DNA from: Squalus acanthias | Lineage: Eukaryota | DNA length: 64,000 nucleotides | Assembly: GCA_030390025.1 (NCBI GenBank) | Contig: CM059432.1 | Coordinates: 6,138,001-6,202,000 of the forward strand | Direction of reading: 5' to 3' | In this document: in pieces, positions 2,700 through 59,089 of the stretch | Position numbering within the stretch: the first letter of the stretch is position 1 | Layout: each line of letters starts with the position of its first letter | Notes under the pieces: model-generated | Seen by the model: only the letters and a program-made list of their open reading frames with translations | The model's database searches: none | What the model was told of the DNA's origin: nothing | Translations under genes and position numbers: made by a program

Positions 2700-4100
2700 A
2701 TATTATTTACAGCACAGAAACAGGCCATTCAGTCCAACAGGTATAGCCAGCGTTTATGCTCCACATGAGCCTCTTCCCAACCCTTCTTCATCTAACTCCA
2801 TCAACATATCCGTCTATTCCTTTCTCCCTCATGTGTTTATCTAGCTTCCCCTTAAATACATCAATGCTAGTTGCCTCAGCCGTCCTTGTGATGACGAGTT
2901 CCACATTCTAACCACCCTCTGGATAAAAACGTTTCTCCTGAATTCCCTATTGGATTTATTATATTGGGTTATTTTATATTTATGGCCCCTCGTTCTGGTC
3001 TCCCCCCGCAAGTGGAAACATCTTCTGTACGTCGACCTTATATAGCCAGTTACTCCCCAACGTCCGCAGCAAATATGCTTCAAAATACAAAATAAAAATC
3101 GACTTTGTGTTTCTGAAGAGTAGTCAATAACTTCACACAAGATTTTCTCATCCGCAAGGTATCTGACATGCAAGGACATAATCTGCACATCATAATCCCT
3201 GCACTCTCCCTCCCTCAATGCAGTTCTTTTTCCATTCGTCATCACTTTCTGCTACCAACTGCCAAGTCAATTTTCAACAAAGCCAGCTAATTTACCATGA
3301 GCTCCATGAGCCTCCATTCTTTTAAAAAGTCTCAGCAGTGGAACTTGATCAAATACCTTCCAAAATTTGAAGCCAATTATACTGACAGACAATTTTTCAT
3401 CCACTTGTTTATTCACCTCCACAGAAAATTCCAGCAGATTAGGGAGGAATTTATAAACCAAGAGCGCTAGTTTGAGATTTTAATAAAATATATGATGTAA
3501 TAATAATTCACAGTATTGAGTAATTAACATATATTGAATTTTGCTGCTATGCGTTCAATTTTATTTCATTCATCAAAAATCCTTCCTCACAAAAAAATTC
3601 TGTTTATAAAAGATGATTTGGTCACACCAATGTTTACTATTTTGTCCCAGTTACACTACATCCCATTTAGTTCTCGAAGTTTAGAAAAGTTTTCAATTAT
3701 AGAATCTTAAAAATTTACTGCACAGGGGGGGAGCAATTTGGCCCATTGTGCCTGTGCTGGCTCTCTGAAAGAGCTATTCAATGTGTCCCAACCCCCGGCC
3801 CTTCTCCCATATACCATTTTCAATTGTCTTTCGCAAATATTTATCCATCCACTTGCCTTTTAAAAGCCATTTTGGATTTTGCTTGCACCACTGTTTCTGC
3901 TAAGGCATTCCTTCATGTAACAACCCTTGGTGTAGAAAAAAAAAATTCTCCTAATCTCTCTCCTTTTGATCTTCCAGTGACAATGTTAATTTATGCCCTC
4001 TAGTTACCAACTCACTGACCATTGGAAATACCTTTTCCTGATCCACCTCATCAAAACTTCACAATTGTGAACAATTCCATCACATTTCCTCTTGCCATTC
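2700..4100 (-). mobile_element. Cluster of old CR1 fragments (3' ends at ~2700-3040 and ~3700-4100; RT piece at ~3220-3460)
   Basis: Translations RTRGHKYKI...FRRNVFIQRVVRMWNS and NLLEF...F.KVFDQVP. Confidence 0.75.
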
Positions 4101-6159: not shown

Positions 6160-6505
6160 CTTATATTTGCATAGTGCCCTTCACATCCTCAGGACCTTTC
6201 AAAGCACTTCACAACCAATTAATCACTTTTAAAGTGTAGTCATTGTTATTTTGTAGGCAGGTAATTTGCACACAGGAAAGTCCCTCAGTGAATGATCCGT
6301 TAGTCTGTTCTGGCGCTGTTGGTTGAAGGATAAACGTTGCCCAGGTCACCTGTAGAACTCCCTACCCTTCGAATAGCACCAAGGGATCTAAACAGGTAGA
6401 TGGGGCCTTGTATTGATGTCTCATCTGAAAAGGGCTCCTCAGAATGCAGCACTCCCTCAATAAAAGCATTAAAGTGTCAGCTTGGATTATACGCTCAAAT
6501 CCTGG
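6160..6505 (-). mobile_element. Diverged tRNA/Deu-type SINE with L2-like tail
   Basis: Reverse complement resembles the SINE at 11490-11920 (gagtgctgcatt, tttcagatgagac, gactacactttaaaag, ggcactatgcaaat). Confidence 0.6.
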
Positions 6506-6509
6506 AATA

Positions 6510-6912
6510 TAAGAAATGGGAACAGTAGACCATTTGGTCCTTTGAGCCTGCTCCGCAATTCAATAAGATCATGGCTGATCTTCTACATCAACTCCACTTT
6601 CCCGCACTATTCCCATATCCCTTGATTCACTTAATATCCAAAAATCTATCGATCTCGGTCTTAAATATACTCAACAACTGGGCCTCCACAGCCCTCTGGG
6701 GTAGAGAATTCTGAAGATTCACAACCCTTTGAGTGAAGAAATTTTTTCCCATCTCAGTCCTAAATGGCCAATCCCTTATTCTGAAACTGTGACCTCTGGT
6801 TCTAGACCCTCCAGCCAGGGGAAACATCCTCCCATCATCTACCCTGTCAAGCCCCGTAAGAATTTTGTATGTTTCAATGAGATCACCTCTCATTCTTCTA
6901 AATTCTAGGGAA
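6510..6912 (-). mobile_element. CR1 3' fragment; continues at 10161-10200 and 10521-10600 after two nested insertions
   Basis: MRGDLIETYKILTGLDRVD...FFTQRVVNL.NSLPQRAV. The sequence cttctaaattctagggaa resumes as tataggcc at 10161; VRPHLEYCVQIWSPYLRKD at 10521-10600. Confidence 0.9.
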
Positions 6913-9900
6913 CGGTAGCATAGTGGTTATGTTACTGGACTAGTAATCCAGAGGCCTGGACTAATGATCTGAAGACACGAGTTCAAATCCCACCACGGCA
7001 GCTGGGGAATTTAAATTCAATTAATTAAATAAATCTGGAATAAAAAGCTCGTATCAGTGATGGTGACCATGAAACTATCGGATTGTCATATCTGGTTCAC
7101 TAATGTCCTTTAGGGAAGGAAATCTGCCGTCCTTACCCGGTCTAGCCTATATGTGACTCCAGACCCACAGCAATGTGGTTTGACTCTTAACTGCCCTCTG
7201 AAATGGCCTAGCAAGCCACTCAGTTGTAATAAAACGCTACGAAAAACAAGAAGAAAACTGGATGGACCACCCGGCATCGACCTCGGCTATGGACACGACA
7301 ACGGCACACCCAGCCCAGTCGACCCTGCAAAGTCCTCCTCACCAACATCTGGGGACTTGTGCCAAAATTGGGAGAGCTGTCCCACAGACTAGTCAAGCAA
7401 CAGCCTGACATAGTCATACTCACAGAATCATACCTTTCAGCCAATGTTCCAAACTCCTCCATCACCATCACCGGCAGGACAGACCCACCAGGGGTGGCGG
7501 CACAGTGGCATACAGTCAGGAAGGAGTGGCCCTGGGAGTTATCAACATTGATTCCAGATCCCATGAAGTCTCATGGCTTCAGGTCAAGCATGAGCAAGGA
7601 AACATTCTGCTGATTACCACCTACCGCCCTCCCTCAGCTGATGAATCAGTACTCCTCCATGTTGACCACCACTTGGAAGAAGCACTGAGAGTAACAAGGG
7701 CACAGAAGGTACTCTGGGTGGGGGACTTCAATGTAGCACCACTACTGACCGAGCTGGCAGAGTCCTGAATGACATAGCTGCCAGTCTGGGCCTGCGACAG
7801 GTGGTGAGAGAAACAACACGATGAAAAACCTACTTGACCTCGTCCTCACCAATCTACCTGTCGCAGATGCATCTGTCCATGACAGCATTGGTAGCAGTGA
7901 CCAGCGCACAGTCATCGTGGAGACGAAGTCCCATCTTCACACTGAGGACACACTCCATCATGTTGTGTGGCACTACCACTGTGCTAAATGGGATAGATTC
8001 AGAACAGATCTAGAAGCACAAAACTGAGCATCCATGAGGTGCTGTGGGCCATCAGCAGCAGCAGAATTGTATTCTACCATAATCTGTAACCTCATGGCCC
8101 AGCATATCCCTCACTCTACCATTACCATCAAGCCAGGGGACCAACCCTGGTTCAATAAGGAGTGTAGAAGAGCATGCCAGGAGCAGCACCAGGCGTACCT
8201 AAAAATGCGGTGCCAACCTGGGGAAGCTGCAACACTGGACTACATGCATGCTAAAAAGCAGAAGCAGCATGCTATAGACAGGGCTAAGCAATCCCACAAT
8301 CAACGGGTCAGATCAAAGCTCTGCAGTTCTGCCACATCCAGTCGTGAATGGTGGTGGACCATTAAACAACTAATGGGAGGAAGAGGCTCCATGAATAACC
8401 CCATCCTCAATGATGGTGGAGCCCAGCACATGAGTGCAAAAGACAAAGCTGAAGTGTTTGCAACCATCTTCAGCCGTAAGTGCCGACTGGATGATCCATA
8501 TCAGGCCCCTCCTGAGGTCTCCACCACCACAGAAGCCAGTCTTCAGCCAATTCGATTCACTCCATGTGATATCTAGTGTGCTCAGCCGTTTCTTGATAAG
8601 ACAAAGGCTGTGGCCCCAACAACATCCCGGCTGTCGTGCTGAAAACTTGTGCTTCAGAACTAGCCGCGCCTCCAACCAAGCTGTTCCAGTACAGCTACAA
8701 CACTGGCAGCTATCTGACATTCTGGAAAACTGTCCAGGTATGTCCTGTCCACAAAAAGCAGGACAAATCCAATCCAGCCAATTACCGCCCCATCAGTCTA
8801 CTCAATCATCAGCAAAGTGATGGACGTGTAGTCGACAGTGCTGTCAAGCAGCACTTATTCACCAATAACCTGCTCACTGATGCCCAGTTTGGGTTCCGCC
8901 GGGACCACTCGGCTCCAGACTTCATTACAGCCTTGGTCCAAACATGGCCAAAAGAGCTGAATTCCAAAGGTGAGGTGAGAGTGACAGCCTTTGACATCAA
9001 GGCAGCATTTGACCGAGTGTGGCATCAAGGAGCCCTAGTAAATCTGAAGTCAATGGGAATCGGGGGGAAAACTCTCCACCGGCTGAAGTCATACCTAGCA
9101 CAAAGGAAGATGGTTGTGGTGGTTGGAGGTCAAATCATCACAGCCCCAGGACATCTCTGAAGGAGTTCCTCAGGGCAGTGTCCTCAGCCCAACCATCTTC
9201 AGCTGCTTCATCAATGACCTTCCCCCTCCATCATAAGGTCAGAAATGGGGATGTTCGCTGATGACTACACAGTGTTCAGTGCCAATCGCAACTCCTCAGA
9301 TAATGAAGCAGTCCATGCACGCATATAGCAAGACCTGAACGACATTCAGGCTTGGGCTGATAAGCGGCAGGTAACATTCGCGCCACACAAGTGCCAGGCA
9401 ATGACTATCTCCAACAAGCGAGCGTCTAACCACCGCCCCATGACATTTAACGGCATTACCATCGCCAATTCCCCCACCATCAATATCCTGGGAGTCACTA
9501 TTGACCAGAAACTTAACTGGACCAGCCACATAAATACTGTGGCAACAAGAGCAGGTCAAAGGCTGGGTATTCTGCGGCGAGTTTCTCACCTCCTGACTCC
9601 CCAAAGCCTTTTCACCATCGACAAGGCACAAGTCAGGAGTGTGATGAATACTCTCCACTTGCCTGGATGAGTGCAGCTCCAACAACACTCAAGAAGCTCA
9701 ACACCATCCAAGACAAAGCAGCCCGCTTGATTGGCACCCCATCCACTACCTTAATCATTCACTCCCTCCACCACCGGCATACCATGGCTGCCGTGTGTAC
9801 CATCTACAAGATGCACCACAGCAACTCACCAAGGCTTCTTCGGCAGCACCTCCCAAACCCGCGACCTCTACCACCTAGAAGGACAAGGGCAGCAGGCGCA

Positions 9901-10160
9901 TAGGAACACCACCACCTCCAAGTTCCCCTCCAAGTCGCACACCATCCTGACTTGGAAATATATTGCCGTTCCTTCATCGTCGCTGGGTCAAAATCCTGGA
10001 TCTCCCTCCCTAATAGCACTGTGGGAGTACCTTCACCACACGGACTGCAGCAGTTCAAGAAGGCGGCTCACCACCACCTTCTCAAGGGCAACTAGGGATA
10101 GACAATAAATGCTGGCCTTGCCAGCAACGCCCACATCCCATGAACGAATGTAAAAAAAAA
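6913..10160 (+). mobile_element. Apparently full-length single-ORF APE-RT LINE (CR1/L2 supergroup, clade unresolved) with tRNA-like 5' head; ORF disrupted
   Basis: A box TAGCATAGTGG (6916-6926) and B box GTTCAAATCC (6981-6990). APE motifs NIWGL, LTES, YRPP, GDFN, LDL, SDQ (SDH in the 14488-14949 copy). RT motifs NYRPISLL, QFGFR, DIKAAFDRV, GVPQGSVL, FADD. Ends in a 3' UTR and A-rich tail at ~10083-10160. Confidence 0.9.
6916..6990 (+). promoter_or_regulatory. Type-2 internal RNA polymerase III promoter (A and B boxes)
   Basis: TAGCATAGTGG fits TRGCNNARYGG and GTTCAAATCC fits GTTCRANNC, with ~54 nt spacing. Confidence 0.75.
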
Positions 10161-10204
10161 TATAGGCCTCAATCGCCCCATCCCAAGAATCAGGATTTTC
10201 GTTG

Positions 10205-10524
10205 CAATCACAGAACCACAGAATCCCCACAATGCAGATAGAGGCCATTTCGGCCCATCGAGCCTGCACCAACACATATCCCACCCTATCCCCGTAACCC
10301 CACGTAGTTAATCCCCCTAACACTAAGGGTCAATTTATCATAGCCAAATCAACCTAACCCGCACATCTTTGGACTGTGGGAGGAAACCGGAGCACCCGGA
10401 GGAAACCCACGCAGACACGGGGAGAATGTGCAAACTCCACACAGACAGTCACCCGAGGCCGGATTCGAATCTGGGTCCCTGGCACTGTGAGGCAACAGTG
10501 CTAACCACTATGCCACCGTGTCGC
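10205..10524 (-). mobile_element. tRNA-derived V-SINE (HE1-like) with CR1-derived tail
   Basis: Reverse complement: cacggtggcatagtggttagcactg...gattcgaatcc...tgtgtggagtttgcacattctccccgtgtctgcgtgggtttcctccgggtgctccggtttcctcccacagtccaaag (V domain), then ggctcgatgggccgaaatggcct (CR1 3' tail). Confidence 0.9.
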
Positions 10525-10707
10525 TCGAAGGCAAGTATATCCTTCCTGAGGTAAGGAGACCAAATCTGTACACAATACTCCAGATGTGGTCTCACCCCTG
10601 GAGAGGACTTTAAACCCACAACTTTCTGACTCAGAAGCAATAATGACACCTCTGAGCTATAAGGATATTAAGGGATATGGATCAAAGCTGGGTAAAGATA
10701 ATTGAGG

Positions 10708-10841
10708 AAAACAAAAGCAAAATACTGCAGATGCTGGAAATCTGAAATAAAACAAAAAATGCTGGAAATACTCAGCAGGGCAGGCAGCATCTGTGGAGAA
10801 AGAAAGAGTTAACGTTTCAAGTCGATGACCTTTCATCAGAA
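10708..10841 (-). mobile_element. Short Penelope-like (pLTR) fragment with hammerhead core
   Basis: Same sequence as 36085-36192 and 41770-41955. Flanked by AAGATAATTGAGG (10695-10707) and AAGATAATGGAGG (10840-10852), a probable TSD. Confidence 0.8.
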
Positions 10842-11489
10842 GATAATGGAGGTATAGATCAGGTATAGATCAGTCATGATATCATCGAATGGCTCTATGT
10901 TGCTATGGAACAAATGCACCATAGAAAAAAAAAGTTGTGATAATCACTGCAATGTTGGCCTTTTAAAAAAAAACACACACAAAAGCAGAACTGCTAAATC
11001 TTTACTAAACTATTGATCTGCCAGAACATAAATTGTGAAGAAGCGTCACATCTGCTTCGAAGCACTGCTTACATGATTAGTATCCCTTCCGTCTCTCCTT
11101 AAGAATTGCAGAGTGGAAAAGAAAACAAAGTGGTTAAAATTTTCTCACCGATTCTACTGAAACAATTTACTGAAATCACTTCATTAATTAAAGAAAAATC
11201 AACAGATGGTTTGTCCCGTGACATTTTACAGGACTTCTTAGTTTCTGAACACTAATCTCGCCAGGAGAAAAAAAAATGACTTATCTTCTCACATGTAACT
11301 TGATACCAAAGGGATAATTAAATAACATGAGACATTCGAATGTTAAAAATTATTACTTTCTCTTTCCAACCTCTGTGTCACACATTTGGATCCATTTACC
11401 AAAAACACATTGAAATTGGCCTAGTATAAAACAATGGAAATGCTTAATTATTTTTTTGCTTTATTTCATACCATGTCATTAATTGTATG

Positions 11490-11920
11490 GTGTCCGCTGT
11501 GGCTGAGTGGCCTCTGAATCAGAAGGTTGTGGGTTCAAGTCCCACTCCAGAGACTTGAACACATAATCCAGGCTGATATTTCAGTGCAGTGCGGAGGGAG
11601 TGTTGCACTGCTGGGAGGTACCGTCTTTCAGATGAGATGTTAAACCTATCATATGAGGACATAGAACATCCCATGGCACTATTTCGAAGAAGAGCAGGGG
11701 AGTTCTCCCTGGTGTCCTAGCCAATATTTATCCCTCAACCAACATCACTGAAAAACAGATTATCTGCTGTTTGTGGGAGCTTGCTGTGCGCAAATTGGCT
11801 GCCGCGTTTCCTACATATTACAACAGTGACTACACTTCAAAAGCACTTAATTGGCTGTCAAGCATTTTGGGATGTCCAGTGATCATGAAAGACGCTCTAT
11901 AAATGGAAGTTCTTTCTTTC
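11490..11920 (+). mobile_element. tRNA-derived DeuSINE-like element (SacSINE1-like) with L2-type tail
   Basis: B box GGTTCAAGTCC; central cagatgagatgttaaacc...atcccatggcact...ggtgtcctagccaa; tail gacgctctataaatggaag resembles the L2 3' end at ~47140. Confidence 0.8.
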
Positions 11921-13049
11921 TAACTCATGAAGCGACATCTTGCAGGAAGACTCAAGGAGGAAAAAACTATGAAATTGAAGAGAGTGGAGCAGGGCATAGG
12001 GAAAAAAAAGAGGATATGGTAGAGCAAGAGCCAAGAAAGGGATAAATTTGTTGAAATACAACATTAAACAAAAACAGACATTTTAAACCTTGAAAGAGAA
12101 ACAGATGGAAGGACAAATAATTGATTATGAATGAACAGAGATAAATGGGAAGGACAGGAATAGAAAATTGGCTGTTGGACAGCGGTTTCTGATCCAGTGG
12201 GATCAGTGTTCAGACGGTTATACAAATTATATTTTCATGGGACAAGAATGAATTATGCTGTCAAGAGTTCCAAGAATACTCTTGTATATCAAATTGAGTT
12301 GGAAGGAACTGAACTACCACAAATTCTTATCAAAATAACTATTTTATATGAGCAAAAAAAAGTTCCTTTTTGTATTTTATTAAACTTTTAGGATATAGTT
12401 ATAGCTAACTCACATTGATGCAAACTGTCAAAATAACTCAGTCAGGTAAGCAATTGGCCTCCTGAGCATACAAAAGCAAGAAACGTAAAACCGCCTGAAC
12501 AGGGAGTCTCAAAACCTACAGGTCACACCAGATGCAGTATAACTGCAGCTCAATGCAAAATCACATTTTAAGAGTCCATTGAACTGCTGTGGACTTGTAA
12601 AAAAGTACAGATCTCAAATAGTGAAGCTCAACTTGAGTCTATTGAATAGGCATTGCCATTTACAGACTGTTCGATATGTGCACTCAGCAGTATAACTGCA
12701 TTCACATGTACTTGCTCAGTAAAAACTTAACAAATAAGTCAAAGTAAATCAGTGTTCAGACATCTCGTCCACAATGACCAGTTATATTAAGCTCCAGTCC
12801 CAATAATATACTGCACCGTAGATCACAGAGTATAACATTAGATAGAGCCTCCCCCAGTACAATAGGTCCTCAGCAATACAAAAGAATTAATCCAATAAAA
12901 TGGGTAAAGTGTAATCATATTCATATCTCAACCGAACTTCGAGTAACCTTTTAGGTCAGGCAAGTTCAAGATCCAATCATTGCAAAATCTAGCATGCAAG
13001 TCCATTTCTTGCAAATTTTTTGATGCAACTTATTCATTAATAAAACAAA

Positions 13050-13295
13050 GAAGAGCAGGGAAGTTCTCCCCGGTGTCCTGGCCAATATTTATCCCTCAAT
13101 CAACATCACTAAAACAGATTATCTGGTCATTATCACATTGCTGTTTGTGGGAGCTTGCTGTGTGCAAATTGGCTGCCGCGTTTCCTACATTACAACAGTG
13201 ACTACACTTCAAAAGTACTTCATTGGCTGTAAAGCGCTTTGGGAGGTCAGGTGGTCGTGAAAGGCGCTATATAAATGCAAGTCTTTCGTTTCTTT
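13050..13295 (+). mobile_element. 3' half of the same DeuSINE-like family
   Basis: Near-identical to 11690-11920. Confidence 0.85.
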
Positions 13296-13299
13296 CTTT

Positions 13300-13530
13300 C
13301 ACCTGGAGACAAGTCCATATAGGGGTGGCAAGCTCCCTTCCCTGGAGGACATCAGTAAACCAGTTAGATTTTTGCAAACTCTGGCAGATTTCATGGGCAT
13401 TTTTCTTTCCTGGCACCGGCCCACAAATTACAAGATTTATTGAATTCAATTTCATGACTTCCACGGATTTTTACTCGTTAGACTGGGTTGCTCGTCTAGT
13501 CCAATACCACTGCATTACAGTTCCCCAGTA
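13300..13530 (-). mobile_element. Diverged copy of the tRNA-like head found at 6913-7170
   Basis: Reverse complement shares gcagtggtattggactag, aattgaattcaataaatct and ctggtttactgatgtcctccagggaagg with 6920-7130. Confidence 0.65.
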
Positions 13531-13709
13531 AAGTGAAGTTGGTGTTTAATGCTAACACTATATGCATTTACACAGGCTAACAGATGGCCAACAATGAACA
13601 ATAAAGCTGTAATTCAACTGAAGTGGTTTATGACTTCAGCATAACCAGAAGGAAAATTGAAATTCATTGTTAGCTATTATTTGTAATATAAACTGTATAG
13701 TAAACTTAC

Positions 13710-13754
13710 AGATGACCAGCACTACAGTATTGAGTTTGTTTTCCTAATAGATTT
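13710..13754 (-). other. Candidate 45-nt in-frame cassette exon in STK3 intron 1
   Basis: ctgttttgttttacag|45 nt|gtaagt. Only the phase-2 frame, which matches STK3 exon 2, is free of stops. No transcript evidence. Confidence 0.35.
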
Positions 13755-14117
13755 CTGTAAAACAAAACAGACATTATATCAAGGACCCACAATTCAAGGA
13801 CCCACAATTCCGTTTTGGTGGATGTCATTAGGCCAGGCAGCCTTTACAAGGTTGATTGTGTATTACAATGAAGATCTCATCCAATAAGGACTTGCATAAA
13901 TCTGTGGTTTTCAAACTTTTCTATGTCAGGAACATTGTGCAAATATTGGCATTCTGAGGAACCCACTATAAACATTGACGTTCCCTCCATCCTAACTTCT
14001 AAAAGACAGCGTCAGCTACAAAAAGAATAGTGCTATTATTGCAGAAAATGTTTCATTAGTATGCAGCCAAAAAAATAACAAATCAATGAGTCAACAAAAT
14101 ACAAACATTTGAAAATG

Positions 14118-18380: not shown

Positions 18381-18972
18381 ACCAAAAAAAGGGGGGCGAG
18401 GGGTCAGGTGAGGGGAAATTGAGAAATCTAAAGAGAACGGTCAAGGCAATAGAGCAGTGTAGCGATTTGGGTAAAAATAAGCATAGTGTGACATGAAGGG
18501 ACAAAGAGTTTAATGGCAGCAGTGCAGCAGTAAATAAGGTCAAAGCAGGGAATAATGGTAAAAAATTTGAATTAAAAGGCTCTTTATCTGAATGCACGAA
18601 GCATTCGTAACAAGATAGACGAACTAGTCGCACAAATAGAAATAAATGGGTTTGATCTAATTGCCATTACAGAGACATGGTTGCAAGGTGGCCAAGGTTG
18701 GGAACTAAATGTTCCAGGGTACTTGACGTTTCAAAAAGACAGGCAGAATGGAAAAGGAGGGGGAGTAGCCCTGATAATAAAGGATGACATAAGGACAGTA
18801 GCGAGAAAGGATCTTGGCTCAGAAGATCAGGAAGTAGAATCAGTATGGGTGGAGATAAGGAATAACAAGGAGCAGCAAACGCTGGTAGGAGTAGTATATA
18901 GGCCCGCTAACAGTAGCTATACCATTGGACAGAATATTAATCAAGAAATAGTAGGAGCTTGCAACAAAGGTC

Positions 18973-21267
18973 ATGGAACCAATCAGGGAACAGGCTATTT
19001 TAGACTGGGTATTATGTAACGAGAAAGGATTAATTAGCAATCTTGTTGTACGAGGCCCCTTGGGTCAGAGTGATCATAATATGATAGAATTCTTCATTAG
19101 GATGGAGAGTGAAGTAGTTGACTCAGAGACTAGGGTCCTGAATTTAAATAAAGGAAACTACGATGGTATGAGGCGCGAATTGGGTAGGATTGATTGGGGA
19201 ATGTCACTCAAAGGGTTGACGGTGGATAGGCAATGGCAAACATTCAAAGATTGCATGGATGAACTACAGAATTTGTTCATCCCAGTGTGGCATAAGAATA
19301 AAACAAAAAGGGTGACTCAACCGTGGCTAACAAGGAAAATTAGGGATAGCATAAGATCCAATGAGAGGGCATATAAATTGGCCAGAAAAAGCGGTAACCC
19401 TGAGGATTGGGAGCAGTTTAGGCTTCAACAAAGGAGGACAAAGGGATTAATTAAGAAGGGGAAAATAGAATATGAAAGTAAGCTTGCAGGGAACATAAAA
19501 ACTGACTGTAAGAGCTTTTATAGATATGTGATGAGAAAAAGATTAGTGAAATCAAGTGTAGGTCCCTTGCAGTCAGAAGCGGGGAAAGTTATAATGAGGA
19601 ACAAAGAAATGGCAGACCAATTAAATGCATATTTTGGTTCTGTCTTCACAAAGGAGGACACAAATAACCTCGCAGAGATGTTGGAGAACATAGGGTCTGA
19701 TGAAAGGGAGGAACTGAAAGAAATCAGTATTTGCAGGGAAATGGTGTTAGGGAAATTGACGGAATTGAAGGCCGATAAATCCCCAGGGCCTGATAATCTA
19801 CATCCTCGGGTACTTAAGGAAGTGGCCCTAGAAATAGTAGATGCATTGCTGATCATCTTCCAACAGTCGCTGGAATCTGGAACTGTACCCATGGATTGGA
19901 GGGTAGCTAATGTTAGCCCACTATTCAAAAAGGGTGGTAGAGAGAAAGCGGGGAATTACAGACCGGTAAGCCTGACATCGGTAGTGGGGAAAATGCTAGA
20001 GTCCATTATAAAGGATGTAATAGCTGAGCACTTGAAAAACAGTGACAGGATCGGACAAAGTCAACATGGATTTACAAAAGGTAAATCGTGCTTGACTAAT
20101 CTACTGGAATTTTTTGAGGATGTAACTGGGAAAATAGATAAGGGAGAACCAGTAGATGTGGTGTATTTGGACTTTCAAAAGGCTTTCGATAAGGTCCCGC
20201 ATAAGAGATTAGCGTGTGAAGTTAAGGCATATGGGATTGGGGGCAAGGTATTGACTTGGATAGAGAACTGGTTGGCGGACAGGAAGCAGAGAGTAGGAAT
20301 TAATGGATCTTTTTCCGAATGGCAGGCGGTGACTAGTGGGGTACCGCAGGGGTCGGTCCTTGGACCCCAGCTATTCACAATATACATTAATGATCTAGAT
20401 AAGGGAACTAAATGTAATATCTCCAAGTTTGCAGATGACACAAAGCTGGGTGGGCGTGTGTGCTGCGAGGAAGATACGGAGAAACTCCAGGATGATTTGG
20501 ACAGGTTGGGTGAGTGGGCAGAAGCGTGGCAGATGCAATATAACGTGGATAAATGCGAGGTTATCCATTTTGGTGTCAAAAACAGAAAGGCAGACTATTA
20601 TCTGAATGGCAATAGATTGGGAGAAGGGGAAGTGCAACGAGACCTGGGTGTCCTTGTGCACCAGTCGCTGAAGGTAAGCATGCAGGTGCAGCAGGCGGTG
20701 AAGAAGGCAAATGGTATGTTGGCCTTCATAGCGAAAGGGTTTGAATATAGGAACAGGGATGTCCTGCTGCAGTTGTACAGGGCCTTGGTGACACCATACC
20801 TTGAGTACTGTGTGCAGTTTTGGTCGCCTTATCTGAGGAAGGATGTTCTTGCCATGGAAGGAGTTCAGCGAAGATTCACAAGGCTGATACCTGGGGTGGC
20901 AGGAATGACATATGAGGAGAGATTGGGTCGATTGGGCTTATACTCGCTGGAGTATAGAAGAATGAGAGGGGATCTCATCGAAACATATAAAATTCTGACA
21001 GGTCTGGACAAACTAGATGCAGGAAGAATGTTCCCGCTGGTCGGAGAGTCCAGAACCAAGGGTCATAATCTAAGGATAAGGGGTAAGCCATTTAGGACAG
21101 AAATGAGGAAGAATTTCTTCACCCAGAGAGTGGTGAACCTGTGGAATTCTCTACCACAGAAGGTAGTTGAGGCCAAGTCATTAAATATATTCAAGAATGA
21201 GTTAGATATATTTCTTAAAGCTAAAGGTATCAAGGGATATGGGGAGAAGGCAGGTACAGGGTACTGA
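18973..21267 (+). CDS. Open 764-aa CR1 ORF2 segment (end of APE, complete RT, C-terminus) of a young 5'-truncated CR1
   Basis: SDH, KSPGPD, NYRPVSLTS, QHGF, YLDFQKAFDKV, GVPQGSVLGP, KFADD and ..RDLGV in one uninterrupted frame; 3' UTR runs to 21360 ending (tctatgtt)n. Confidence 0.93.
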   Translation: MEPIREQAILDWVLCNEKGLISNLVVRGPLGQSDHNMIEFFIRMESEVVDSETRVLNLNKGNYDGMRRELGRIDWGMSLKGLTVDRQWQTFKDCMDELQNLFIPVWHKNKTKRVTQPWLTRKIRDSIRSNERAYKLARKSGNPEDWEQFRLQQRRTKGLIKKGKIEYESKLAGNIKTDCKSFYRYVMRKRLVKSSVGPLQSEAGKVIMRNKEMADQLNAYFGSVFTKEDTNNLAEMLENIGSDEREELKEISICREMVLGKLTELKADKSPGPDNLHPRVLKEVALEIVDALLIIFQQSLESGTVPMDWRVANVSPLFKKGGREKAGNYRPVSLTSVVGKMLESIIKDVIAEHLKNSDRIGQSQHGFTKGKSCLTNLLEFFEDVTGKIDKGEPVDVVYLDFQKAFDKVPHKRLACEVKAYGIGGKVLTWIENWLADRKQRVGINGSFSEWQAVTSGVPQGSVLGPQLFTIYINDLDKGTKCNISKFADDTKLGGRVCCEEDTEKLQDDLDRLGEWAEAWQMQYNVDKCEVIHFGVKNRKADYYLNGNRLGEGEVQRDLGVLVHQSLKVSMQVQQAVKKANGMLAFIAKGFEYRNRDVLLQLYRALVTPYLEYCVQFWSPYLRKDVLAMEGVQRRFTRLIPGVAGMTYEERLGRLGLYSLEYRRMRGDLIETYKILTGLDKLDAGRMFPLVGESRTKGHNLRIRGKPFRTEMRKNFFTQRVVNLWNSLPQKVVEAKSLNIFKNELDIFLKAKGIKGYGEKAGTGY

Positions 21268-33122: not shown

Positions 33123-33549
33123 TCACTGTGTGACAAGTTCCTGACCCCTCAAAACCTCTACCATTTACAAGGCTCAATTGAGGAGTGTAATGAATGCTCA
33201 CCACTCCCCTGCATGAGTGCCATTGCAACAATTCTGAAGAAGCTCAGCACCACCCAGGACGGAGAAGTCTGCTTAATTGGTGCCCAGCCAAGAAGGACAA
33301 GAGGAGCAAGATCATGGGAACACCATCACCTCCAAATCACACATCATCCCGACTTGGGCACATCATCATTATTTCATCAACACTGAGTCAAAGTCCTGGA
33401 ATTCTCTACTTAAAACCATCTTGGAAGCACAAGGACTGCATGGTTCAAGGAGAAAAACCACCACCAACTTCTCAGGCAATAAATGCAGCCTTGCCAGCAT
33501 TGCCCACATCCCAAGAACAAATGTTTTAAAAAATACAGCAACTAGGATT

Positions 33550-58211: not shown

Positions 58212-58950
58212 AATTCTCAGATAATGAAGCAGTCTGTGCCCGCATACAAGAAGACCTGGACGACGTTCAAGCTTGGGCTGATAAGTGGCAGGTAACATTC
58301 GCGCCACAGAAGTGCCAGGCAATGACTATCTCCAACAAGCGAGAGGCTAACCACCGCCCTTTGACATTCAACGGCATTACCATCGCCGAATCCCTCACCA
58401 TCAACATCCTGGGGGTCACCATTGACCAGAAACTTAACTGGACCAACCACAAAAATACTGTGGAAACAAGAGCAGGTCAGAGGCTAGGTATCCTGCGGCG
58501 AGTGTCTCACCTCCTGACTCCCCAAAGCCTTTCCACGATCTACAAAGCACAAGTCAGGAGTGTGATGGGATACTCTCCACTTGCCTGGATGAGTGCAGCT
58601 CCAACAACACTCAATAAGCTACAAGATGCACTGCAGCAACTCGCCAAGGCTTCTTCGGCAGCACCTCACAAACCCGCGACCTCTTCCACCTAGAAGGATA
58701 AGGGTAGCAGCCGCATGGGAACACCACCACCTCCAAGTTCCCCTCCAAGTCACACACCATCGTGACTCAGAAGTATATCGCCGATCCTTCATCATCGCTG
58801 GGTCAAAATCCTGGAACTCCCTACCTAACAGTACCTTCACCACATTGACTGCAACGGTTCAAGAAGGTGGCTCACCACCACCTTCTCAAGGGCAATTAGG
58901 AATGGGCAATAAATGTTGGCATTGCCAGCGACACCCACATCCCATAAACT
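58212..58950 (+). mobile_element. 3' fragment of the 6913-10160 LINE family
   Basis: SDNEAV.ARIQEDL..VQAWADKWQVTFAP.KCQAM...KAQVRSVM.YSPLAWMSAAPTTL. Confidence 0.9.
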
Positions 58951-59089
58951 AATTTTTTTTTAAATCCCGAAATGTAAAAATTATACAATTAACAAAATTG
59001 CAATTTTATTCATAAGTTCCTTCATTGCACCAACCTCAATAAAAATTAAATTTTTTGTTAATAATTTTAAACATCATTAAGACTGTAAT

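Follow-up and report, generated by a model that had tools for sequence, protein, structure and literature searches.

Can a long interspersed nuclear element (LINE) carry, as its own 5′ end, the transfer RNA (tRNA)-like head and the body of a short interspersed nuclear element (SINE)? The question is raised by a locus in a 64,000-nucleotide (nt) stretch of Squalus acanthias DNA (assembly GCA_030390025.1, contig CM059432.1, positions 6,138,001 to 6,202,000 of the forward strand), hereafter the window. Positions 6908-10160 (+) of the window hold a single 3.25-kb insertion of a retrotransposon that lacks long terminal repeats (non-LTR), in which a degenerate tRNA-derived head is followed by a SINE-type body of ~230 nt, a short linker, a decayed frame for an apurinic/apyrimidinic-type endonuclease (APE) and a reverse transcriptase (RT), and a short A tail.

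In the literature examined, as far as its accessible text extends, SINEs and LINEs count as distinct lineages with nothing but a 3′ tail in common, and SINE heads come from genes of RNA polymerase III (Pol III). Where a LINE has a complete SINE head and body and is accompanied by deletion derivatives, there is a tangible path by which a LINE could become a SINE, or a SINE turn back into a LINE. Two questions become testable, namely the origin of SINE bodies and whether a Pol III promoter can drive an autonomous coding retroelement. There is also a consequence for annotation, as repeat-masking programs would divide copies of this kind into a 'SINE' and a 'LINE'.

The element at 6908-10160 is very probably a full-length but dead representative of an elasmobranch non-LTR retrotransposon of high copy number, whose 5′ untranslated region (UTR) is a SINE-type module followed by an APE-RT frame of ~950 codons and a short A tail. 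This reading concerns structure and family membership, not the polymerase. The family coexists with many short head-and-tail forms that lack the open reading frame (ORF).

One Insertion in One Site

The insertion interrupts an older LINE on the minus strand. Across the joint (10161.../...6912) this host LINE can be read without interruption as G-L-Y-S-L-E-F-R-R-M-R-G-D-L-I-E, and in contigs from three runs of other organisms, where the host family is uninterrupted, position 6912 is followed by TATAGGCC..., which is the window from 10161 onward. Because the host frame and the uninterrupted contigs agree, head, ORF and tail occupy one insertion site, as had been proposed in the first-pass annotation, a model's reading of the letters. 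Its 3′ boundary at 10160 stands, and its 5′ boundary moves slightly: the family begins with GGGAACGGTAGC..., and the element therefore starts at 6908, its first five bases coinciding with the host. The 5′ joint is thus a 5-nt microhomology, with GGGAA in both host and element. Target-site duplications were checked by eye in only four full copies; one of ~10 bp was seen in L069, and none in the window copy, L061 or L064.

The SINE-Type Module as the 5′ End of a Family

The genome searched was the window's own (3.7 Gb), and each exact pattern was paired with a reversed control. A junction query (7130-7430) gave 4,411 candidates, 40 of which were scored; all 40 spanned it whole, at 92-94% identity. 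An exact pattern for the LINE form (body, a gap of 145-175 nt, APE start) had 2,067 matches genome-wide and none for the reversed control. The first-pass annotation had allowed that the head-ORF junction might be unique to this locus, and these counts refute that, the junction being family-wide. A one-off chimera, in which a LINE inserted next to or within a SINE or the two were joined by one template switch, would show the junction at one locus only, and nothing but the single-locus appearance speaks for it. The junction query, the genome-wide pattern and the alignment of 5′ ends with their independent flanks refute such an event, the probability of which is negligible.

Exact 25-mers from the head, the body, the APE start and the tail had 6,551, 11,619, 3,686 and 45,377 genome matches, respectively, with no match for any reversed control; head matches are more numerous than those of the APE start. 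The preponderance of tails over APE starts, together with scattered truncation points, is the common 3′ end and variable 5′ truncation of a LINE. Twenty-one aligned copies, the window copy included, begin at or within 1-3 nt of GGGAACGG and have unrelated flanks throughout, two among them (L010 and L016) matching only from about nt 8. Truncation in 18 further copies is scattered from nt 25 to 208, and their flanks are unrelated as well. A second preferred 5′ end near nt 183-208 was considered and rejected, the starts being scattered and the flanks unrelated.

Fifteen copies were also gathered through the RT protein or long ORFs, with the junction left unused. Thirteen have the head sequence upstream of the APE and two are truncated; none (0/15) has the other 5′ region or the ORF1 that the first-pass annotation had named as evidence against its own proposal. 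In this family the genuine 5′ end is the SINE-type module, and the copies are independent insertions showing 5′ truncation. Median identity to a rough majority sequence is 94.4% (76 high-scoring segment pairs), so that copies lie about 5.6% away from it. The window itself holds seven other pieces of the family, in line with the further ORF pieces noted at first pass.

Rearrangement also reaches the 5′ module. Two loci have an apparent start at about nt 411, L034 and L050; in one it reflects plain truncation and in the other an internal deletion that retains the tRNA head: the LINE copy at L050:96-300 has the tRNA part (nt 1-120) and lacks nt 121-411, so that the head nearly abuts the APE start. 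Internal deletions therefore occur within the 5′ module too.

The APE-RT Frame and Its Start

Conserved domains identify the coding part. Pfam reports RVT_1 on the window piece 8600-9160 (E 5e-13) and, on the better-preserved full-length copy L061, Exo_endo_phos (amino acids (aa) 41-235, E 3.9e-9), Exo_endo_phos_2 and RVT_1 (aa 520-765, E 2.4e-36); an APE domain with a reverse transcriptase behind it in a single ORF is the organization of a LINE. The longest open frames among 150 scored copies are 819 aa (L061) and 863 aa with one TAG. The APE start (...VLLTNIWGL) lies at about 7335-7360, where the NIWGL motif had been placed at first pass. That annotation had also listed the APE, the RT, a 3′ UTR and an A-rich tail; all are present, with the 3′ UTR reduced to about 55 nt by an ORF that reaches the TAG in better copies. 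As this stop is about 65 nt before the 3′ end, coding fills nearly all of the sequence after the head.

Initiation is probably less conventional. After the TAA that closes the frame upstream (Table 1), the reading continues as ...CKVLLTNIWGLVPKLGELSHRLVKQQPDIVILTESYL..., the start of the endonuclease. No in-frame AUG lies between this TAA and the APE in L061 or in the majority sequence, and the first methionine is near aa 280. The first-pass annotation had observed the missing ATG and had considered decay of the window copy as its cause. The observation holds, and the cause is a family trait, as L061, the majority sequence and the parsed copies attest.

Two ATGs of the window copy, in the -1 frame relative to the APE, are mostly ACG across the family (18 ACG, 10-12 ATG and 4 ACA among parsed copies at each of the sites 7262 and 7289), and an upstream ATG or ACG in that frame is kept by 33 of 34 parsed copies at the first site and 36 of 37 at the second. 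A -1/+1 frameshift into the APE from this upstream frame, or from an AUG at majority nt 274, was examined by eye and rejected for want of a convincing slippery site. A different candidate is the in-frame GCTACGA, present in most of the first 100 LINE-form matches in a by-eye count, with ATG and ACA variants about equally rare; the dominance of ACG and the equal rarity of the two variants fit decay of an ancestral ACG. We infer that the protein starts at a non-AUG codon, most likely the in-frame ACG at 7239-7241, four codons past the TAA.

Contigs from other organisms add variants of this region. One has seven changed positions upstream of the APE, including a 6-nt insertion; in our own translation, the basic character of the N-terminus is kept or raised in the APE frame, and the -1-frame ATG is destroyed. 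Another joins sequence at or before 7220 to sequence at or after 7313 through a different 22-nt linker that ends in ATG.

The tRNA-Derived Head

The head is best described as tRNA-derived and degenerate. Both the A box and the B box of the first-pass annotation were found in place by reading the sequence (Table 1). The consensus sequences used for scoring, TRGCNNAGTGG for the A box and GGTTCGANTCC for the B box, are general ones and not tool-derived. The tRNA likeness of the head, also claimed at first pass, holds for the boxes and for a fold at relaxed settings. ARAGORN at default settings makes no tRNA call on the head, and Rfam at E<=1 on 6500-14000 gives no tRNA, ribozyme or other family at the element; relaxed ARAGORN on the family majority gives a tRNA-Thr(AGT)-like fold at element nt 5-93. 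The anticodon stem-loop is duplicated in tandem as a 21-nt unit (CTGGRCTAGTAATCCAGAGGC / CTGGACTAATGATCCAGAGAC, element nt 28-69, window about 6935-6976), and this duplication widens the spacing of the boxes, shifting the B box about 21 nt farther from the A box.

A tRNA-derived 5′ head with A and B boxes is the hallmark of SINE2 elements, even if the fold appears here only at the relaxed setting. SINE2 elements are short (under about 700 bp) and non-coding, whereas this element is 3.25 kb long with an APE-RT ORF; only its deletion derivatives have the SINE2 format.

Contigs of other organisms cover the body part 7092-7207 at 10-50 times the depth of the ORF part. Elsewhere in the window, an 'older copy of the head' had been annotated at 13300-13530. 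A SINE-like relative of the body does lie there; it is on the minus strand, its body match covers 68 nt at 69%, and no part of it matches the tRNA region. It has the look of an aged copy belonging to a related SINE.

Short Forms and the Order of Origin

Head and tail also occur together with the coding middle missing. A contig in one run from another organism joins the head end straight to the 3′ region of the LINE. In the genome, the head end is followed by a 3′ motif within 0-25 nt at 330 exact matches, and the body motif is followed by the tail motif at 90-120 nt in 981 and at 130-160 nt in 592, each with a control of 0. With equally specific patterns, short forms thus number 1,573 and LINE forms 2,067. 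Two of seven short loci, L074 (89% identity, head from nt 24) and L077 (70%, complete head), consist of head plus tail and align with element nt 1/24-321/333 and then nt 3141/3147 to the end. These are the 5′ and 3′ parts of a parent LINE with the middle missing, as in bipartite LINE derivatives.

The deletion junctions are diverse, with about ten different ones among the matches listed. The 5′ stops vary (GTTGT(A), GCTAC, GCTACGAC and others), as do the 3′ restarts (TAAGGCGG, TTCAAG, AGCGG, TGCAGCGG, CGGACTGCAGCGG and CAGCACTGTGGGAG). Some short forms have more 3′ LINE sequence, so not all can be derived from one another by further deletion. Most short forms read GTTGTACC where the LINE has GTTGTAAC, a difference which suggests that they have master copies of their own. 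The first-pass idea that the LINE is the parent of a SINE formed by internal deletion gains support from these head-and-tail forms and their varied junctions; the direction may be either from LINE to SINE or by capture of a SINE head by a LINE.

The order may be the reverse, a possibility that we take seriously without favouring it. An ancient tRNA-type SINE with head, body and LINE tail would then have come first. Its 5′ module would later have passed to a headless LINE through recombination or a template switch of the RT, and the resulting chimera would have amplified, with the captured module serving as a Pol II promoter or 5′ UTR. SINEs of the same build (SacSINE1/LmeSINE1) are reported from sharks, skate, chimaera and coelacanth in the accessible part of Luchetti et al. 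(2017; PMC5499810) and are hence very old, and template-switch chimeras are a known by-product of LINEs (Kojima, 2020; PMC7245038, in the portion available). An old short form, L077, is present at 70% identity, and the body domain is far commoner than the ORF part in contigs of other organisms. Against capture, none of the 15 junction-independent copies is a headless full-length relative, old LINE copies (69-80% identity in the head) already have the module, and the varied linker stops and 3′ coding restarts arise more easily by repeated deletion of a head-bearing LINE.

Several points weigh against a head-bearing autonomous LINE as the source of the family and its short forms. Several counts rely on a majority sequence that was roughly projected onto the window copy and in which frameshifts remain. 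No intact full-length ORF was seen among the best 150 of 294,998 candidates, and the copies stand about 5.6% from the majority, so that any autonomy would be that of the ancestor. Three frames overlap around the head-ORF junction, which bears on the choice of start codon. Some deletion junctions could derive from one another, leaving the number of independent events uncertain. Finally, in age the most ancient short form observed, L077 (70%), equals or exceeds the most ancient LINE copy observed with a head, L048 (69% over the body), and a LINE-first order is therefore not established.

Transcription of the Full-Length Element

The first-pass annotation suggested an autonomous LINE driven by Pol III. 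TFIIIC would bind the A and B boxes, and Pol III would start at the first G and transcribe all 3.3 kb; with no T4 terminator in the sense strand, it would stop at or after the 3′ end, and the uncapped RNA would be translated from a non-AUG codon, R2 likewise being translated without a cap. For the full-length RNA, we give RNA polymerase II (Pol II) an even chance, Pol III a tentative second place, and both enzymes or another arrangement a small residual probability.

The putative promoter itself is consistent with Pol III. The A box is perfect and the B box matches the consensus at 9/11 positions; both are kept in both LINE subfamilies, and no in-box variant occurs among the variants listed from four runs of other organisms. 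Full-length copies begin 8 nt before the A box, which thus starts at +9. The absence of an in-frame AUG and of an ORF1 also accords with an RNA of this kind.

Termination signals give a more divided picture. The majority sense strand has no run of T>=4 and 16 of A>=4, whereas mononucleotide shuffles expect 3.9 T runs (P 0.015). The density of T4+ runs is 0.24 per kb in family ORFs, whereas 10 ORFs from other LINEs of the same genome have 2.1 per kb (observed/expected ratios of 0.23 and 0.64, respectively). However, when codon composition is kept, the ORF (a 2.5-kb open frame) expects only 1.5 such runs (P 0.17-0.19), and the 78 family ORFs all go back to a single ancestor and do not count as independent samples. 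Because the depletion is significant only against the composition-only null and not against the codon-aware one, it is kept as weak support.

The 3′ end can be read either way. The only T4+ run of L061 in 3,260 nt lies at its extreme 3′ end, and in 10 of 49 3′ ends a T4-T10 run separates ...GAAT from the terminal A run; 32 of the 49 have an A run only. Examples of the T run are found at L061:5055-5075, in L069 and L067, and at window 33520-33533 and 58944-58953. Combined with the upstream AATAAA, this arrangement resembles the tails of polyadenylated Pol III SINEs, and the terminal T runs could equally be slippage at priming. The AATAAA about 45 nt before the A tail is also what Pol II mRNAs have.

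General considerations count against Pol III. Its products are normally under about 0.5 kb and poorly translated, and we know of no coding retroelement that it transcribes. Pol II is the polymerase assumed for LINEs and bipartite derivatives in the available text of Kojima (2018; PMC5786205). The in-silico signs, although weak, are compatible with transcription of the element by Pol III.

A possible replication cycle is as follows. Full-length RNA would begin with the head's first G, its promoter lying within the head or body. The protein, translated from the non-AUG codon discussed above, would copy its own RNA by target-primed reverse transcription, and the 5′ end would be joined by microhomology, as at the window locus. 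Derivatives of ~400-500 nt may repeatedly have arisen by internal deletion, or when the template jumped between the LINE RNA's 3′ and 5′ parts. In effect they would be SINEs of the tRNA type, with Pol III driving their transcription and mobilisation occurring in trans.

Coordinates and Neighbouring Features

Table 1. Features of the element and its surroundings, in window positions.
Feature	Positions	Strand	Description
Whole element	6908..10160	+	Decayed full-length copy, 93% identical to family majority; ~3.25-3.3 kb non-LTR retrotransposon
First 5 nt, GGGAA	from 6908	+	Common to element and host sequence
Degenerate tRNA-derived head	6912..7000	+	tRNA-Thr(AGT)-like only at relaxed threshold; 21-nt tandem duplication of anticodon arm (about 6935-6976)
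A box TAGCATAGTGG	6916..6926	+	11/11 to consensus TRGCNNAGTGG; starts 9 nt from the element's first base
B box (G)AGTTCAAATCC	6980..6990	+	9/11 to consensus GGTTCGANTCC
SINE-type body	7001..7229	+	Common to short forms; window copy lacks 8 nt (AAAAACCC) at about 7090
TAA	7230..7232	+	Closes APE frame upstream; conserved (GTTGTAA) in aligned copies
Single APE-RT frame	7233..10095	+	About 950 codons when intact; basic N-terminal stretch; several frameshifts and stops here
In-frame ACG (GCTACGA)	7239..7241	+	Candidate non-AUG start, four codons past TAA; purine at -3
Two ATGs	7262-7264, 7289-7291	+	-1 frame relative to APE
APE	about 7340-7940	+	Within the single frame
RT	about 8750-9520	+	Within the single frame
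Stop TAG	10093-10095	+	65 nt before element end; frame end in better copies
AATAAA hexamer	10104..10109	+	43 nt before A run
Terminal A run, 9 A	10152..10160	+	Family tail is ...CCCAT(A/G)AACGAAT plus short A run
Host CR1/L2-type LINE ORF, 3′ part (...SLEFRRMRGDLIETYKIL...)	6627..6912	-	Interrupted by the insertion
Host LINE continuation, upstream of the insertion	10161..10330	-	Reads ...GLY| across the joint
Old diverged SINE-like copy, body-related	13299..13530	-	69% over 68 nt

Just upstream of the host LINE piece, the minus strand at 10330-10400 has a stretch reading TCCGGGTGCTCCGGTTTCCTCCCACAGTCCAAAGATGTGCGGGTTAGG, a motif that we take to be that of a widespread fish/shark SINE core. Several loci of family copies match window 10272-10400, and the piece is therefore recurrent. 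A 770-aa open frame at 18955-21264 (+) belongs to another LINE family and looks much better preserved than the element studied here; the two are 26% identical over 629 aa.

Two further observations come from loci sampled for the family. Beside a family copy, L070:4577-7500 (+) contains a 316-aa ORF with cysteine-rich motifs and, after it, an open APE/RT frame of 666 aa that reaches past the end of the locus; this is possibly a young two-ORF LINE. At L067:1-2075, a low-complexity tract yields 'open frames' of 660-690 aa with SLSLPP-type repeats in three frames, and a gene was rejected there in favour of a microsatellite-like array.

Comparison with Known Systems

Judged on its RT motifs alone, the element looks like a member of the CR1/L2/Jockey group, and it is RTE-like in its length and single ORF. 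The closest proteins from outside the sharks share 23-37% identity with it and are either unnamed or labelled 'hypothetical'.

The closest parallel to the short forms is SacSINE1/LmeSINE1. In the part of Ohshima (2013; PMC3747384) that is accessible, these are listed as tRNA-promoter DeuSINEs with a CR1-4_DR-like tail, and several '(5′-end of RTE)' derivatives are listed as well; the accessible text of Luchetti et al. (2017; PMC5499810) gives SacSINE1 only a 3′ end in common with L2-2_CM. The layouts agree: in the short forms, a tRNA-like head bearing the A and B boxes precedes a conserved body, which a LINE-shared tail of 100-160 nt follows, about 450 nt in total, and the hosts are again cartilaginous fishes. 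The body may resemble the Deu domain. The difference lies in the partner LINE. As described in the available portions of those two papers, the partner of SacSINE1/LmeSINE1 (L2-2_CM in PMC5499810, 'CR1-4_DR-like' in PMC3747384) shares its 3′ tail only, whereas the LINE described here also carries the whole head and body at its 5′ end; it is by these descriptions that the two are set apart. That this element is the living parent of a tRNA-headed SINE superfamily, in which the SINE head and conserved body were never 'added' to a LINE tail, seems to us a doubtful proposition. If true, it would make the SINE head/body and the LINE tail two ends of one LINE.

The short forms also resemble bipartite derivatives (Bov-A2, MAR4, RTESINE1, RTE1-N1_LA; Ingi/RIME; R2 SIDEs), which combine the two ends of a parent LINE after internal deletion, to follow the accessible text of PMC3747384 and PMC5786205. 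Here too, the 5′ and 3′ ends of the parent are kept and the middle is lost. In contrast to those derivatives, which the available text of Kojima (2018; PMC5786205) describes only from RTE, Ingi, Vingi and R2 and takes to be transcribed by Pol II, the 5′ part here is itself a module of the tRNA type, the kind that forms Pol III promoters, which formally makes the derivative a SINE2. The same portion of Kojima (2018) reports LINE 5′ parts within SINE bodies only for RTE and Vingi, finds conserved bodies without a LINE match and calls their origin 'enigmatic'; the part of Kojima (2020; PMC7245038) consulted describes SINEs with bipartite RTE parts behind a tRNA or 7SL head, and no LINE with such a head.

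A different precedent concerns the RNA. Among autonomous LINEs, R2 has a single ORF, no ORF1 and often no start AUG, and its RNA is not a standard capped Pol II mRNA; it is co-transcribed with ribosomal RNA by RNA polymerase I and released by a ribozyme like that of hepatitis delta virus. The element studied here is likewise single-ORF, without ORF1 and without an in-frame start AUG. Unlike R2, it has no ribozyme family match in Rfam, and its insertion is not site-specific. In its architecture it recalls the U6/L1 template-switch chimeras, in which a small sequence of the Pol III RNA type is fused 5′ of LINE sequence in one insertion. Those chimeras are unique and dead on arrival, whereas the fusion described here is inherited as the 5′ end of a family numbering thousands of copies.

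No account of a LINE headed by a tRNA-type sequence turned up in literature searches, and the accessible parts of PMC4824008 and PMC11481361 contain nothing to the contrary; Repbase, Dfam and subscription journals lie outside that search, and a prior description is possible there. Within the literature compared above, what is new is a LINE/SINE pair whose LINE itself carries the SINE head and body.

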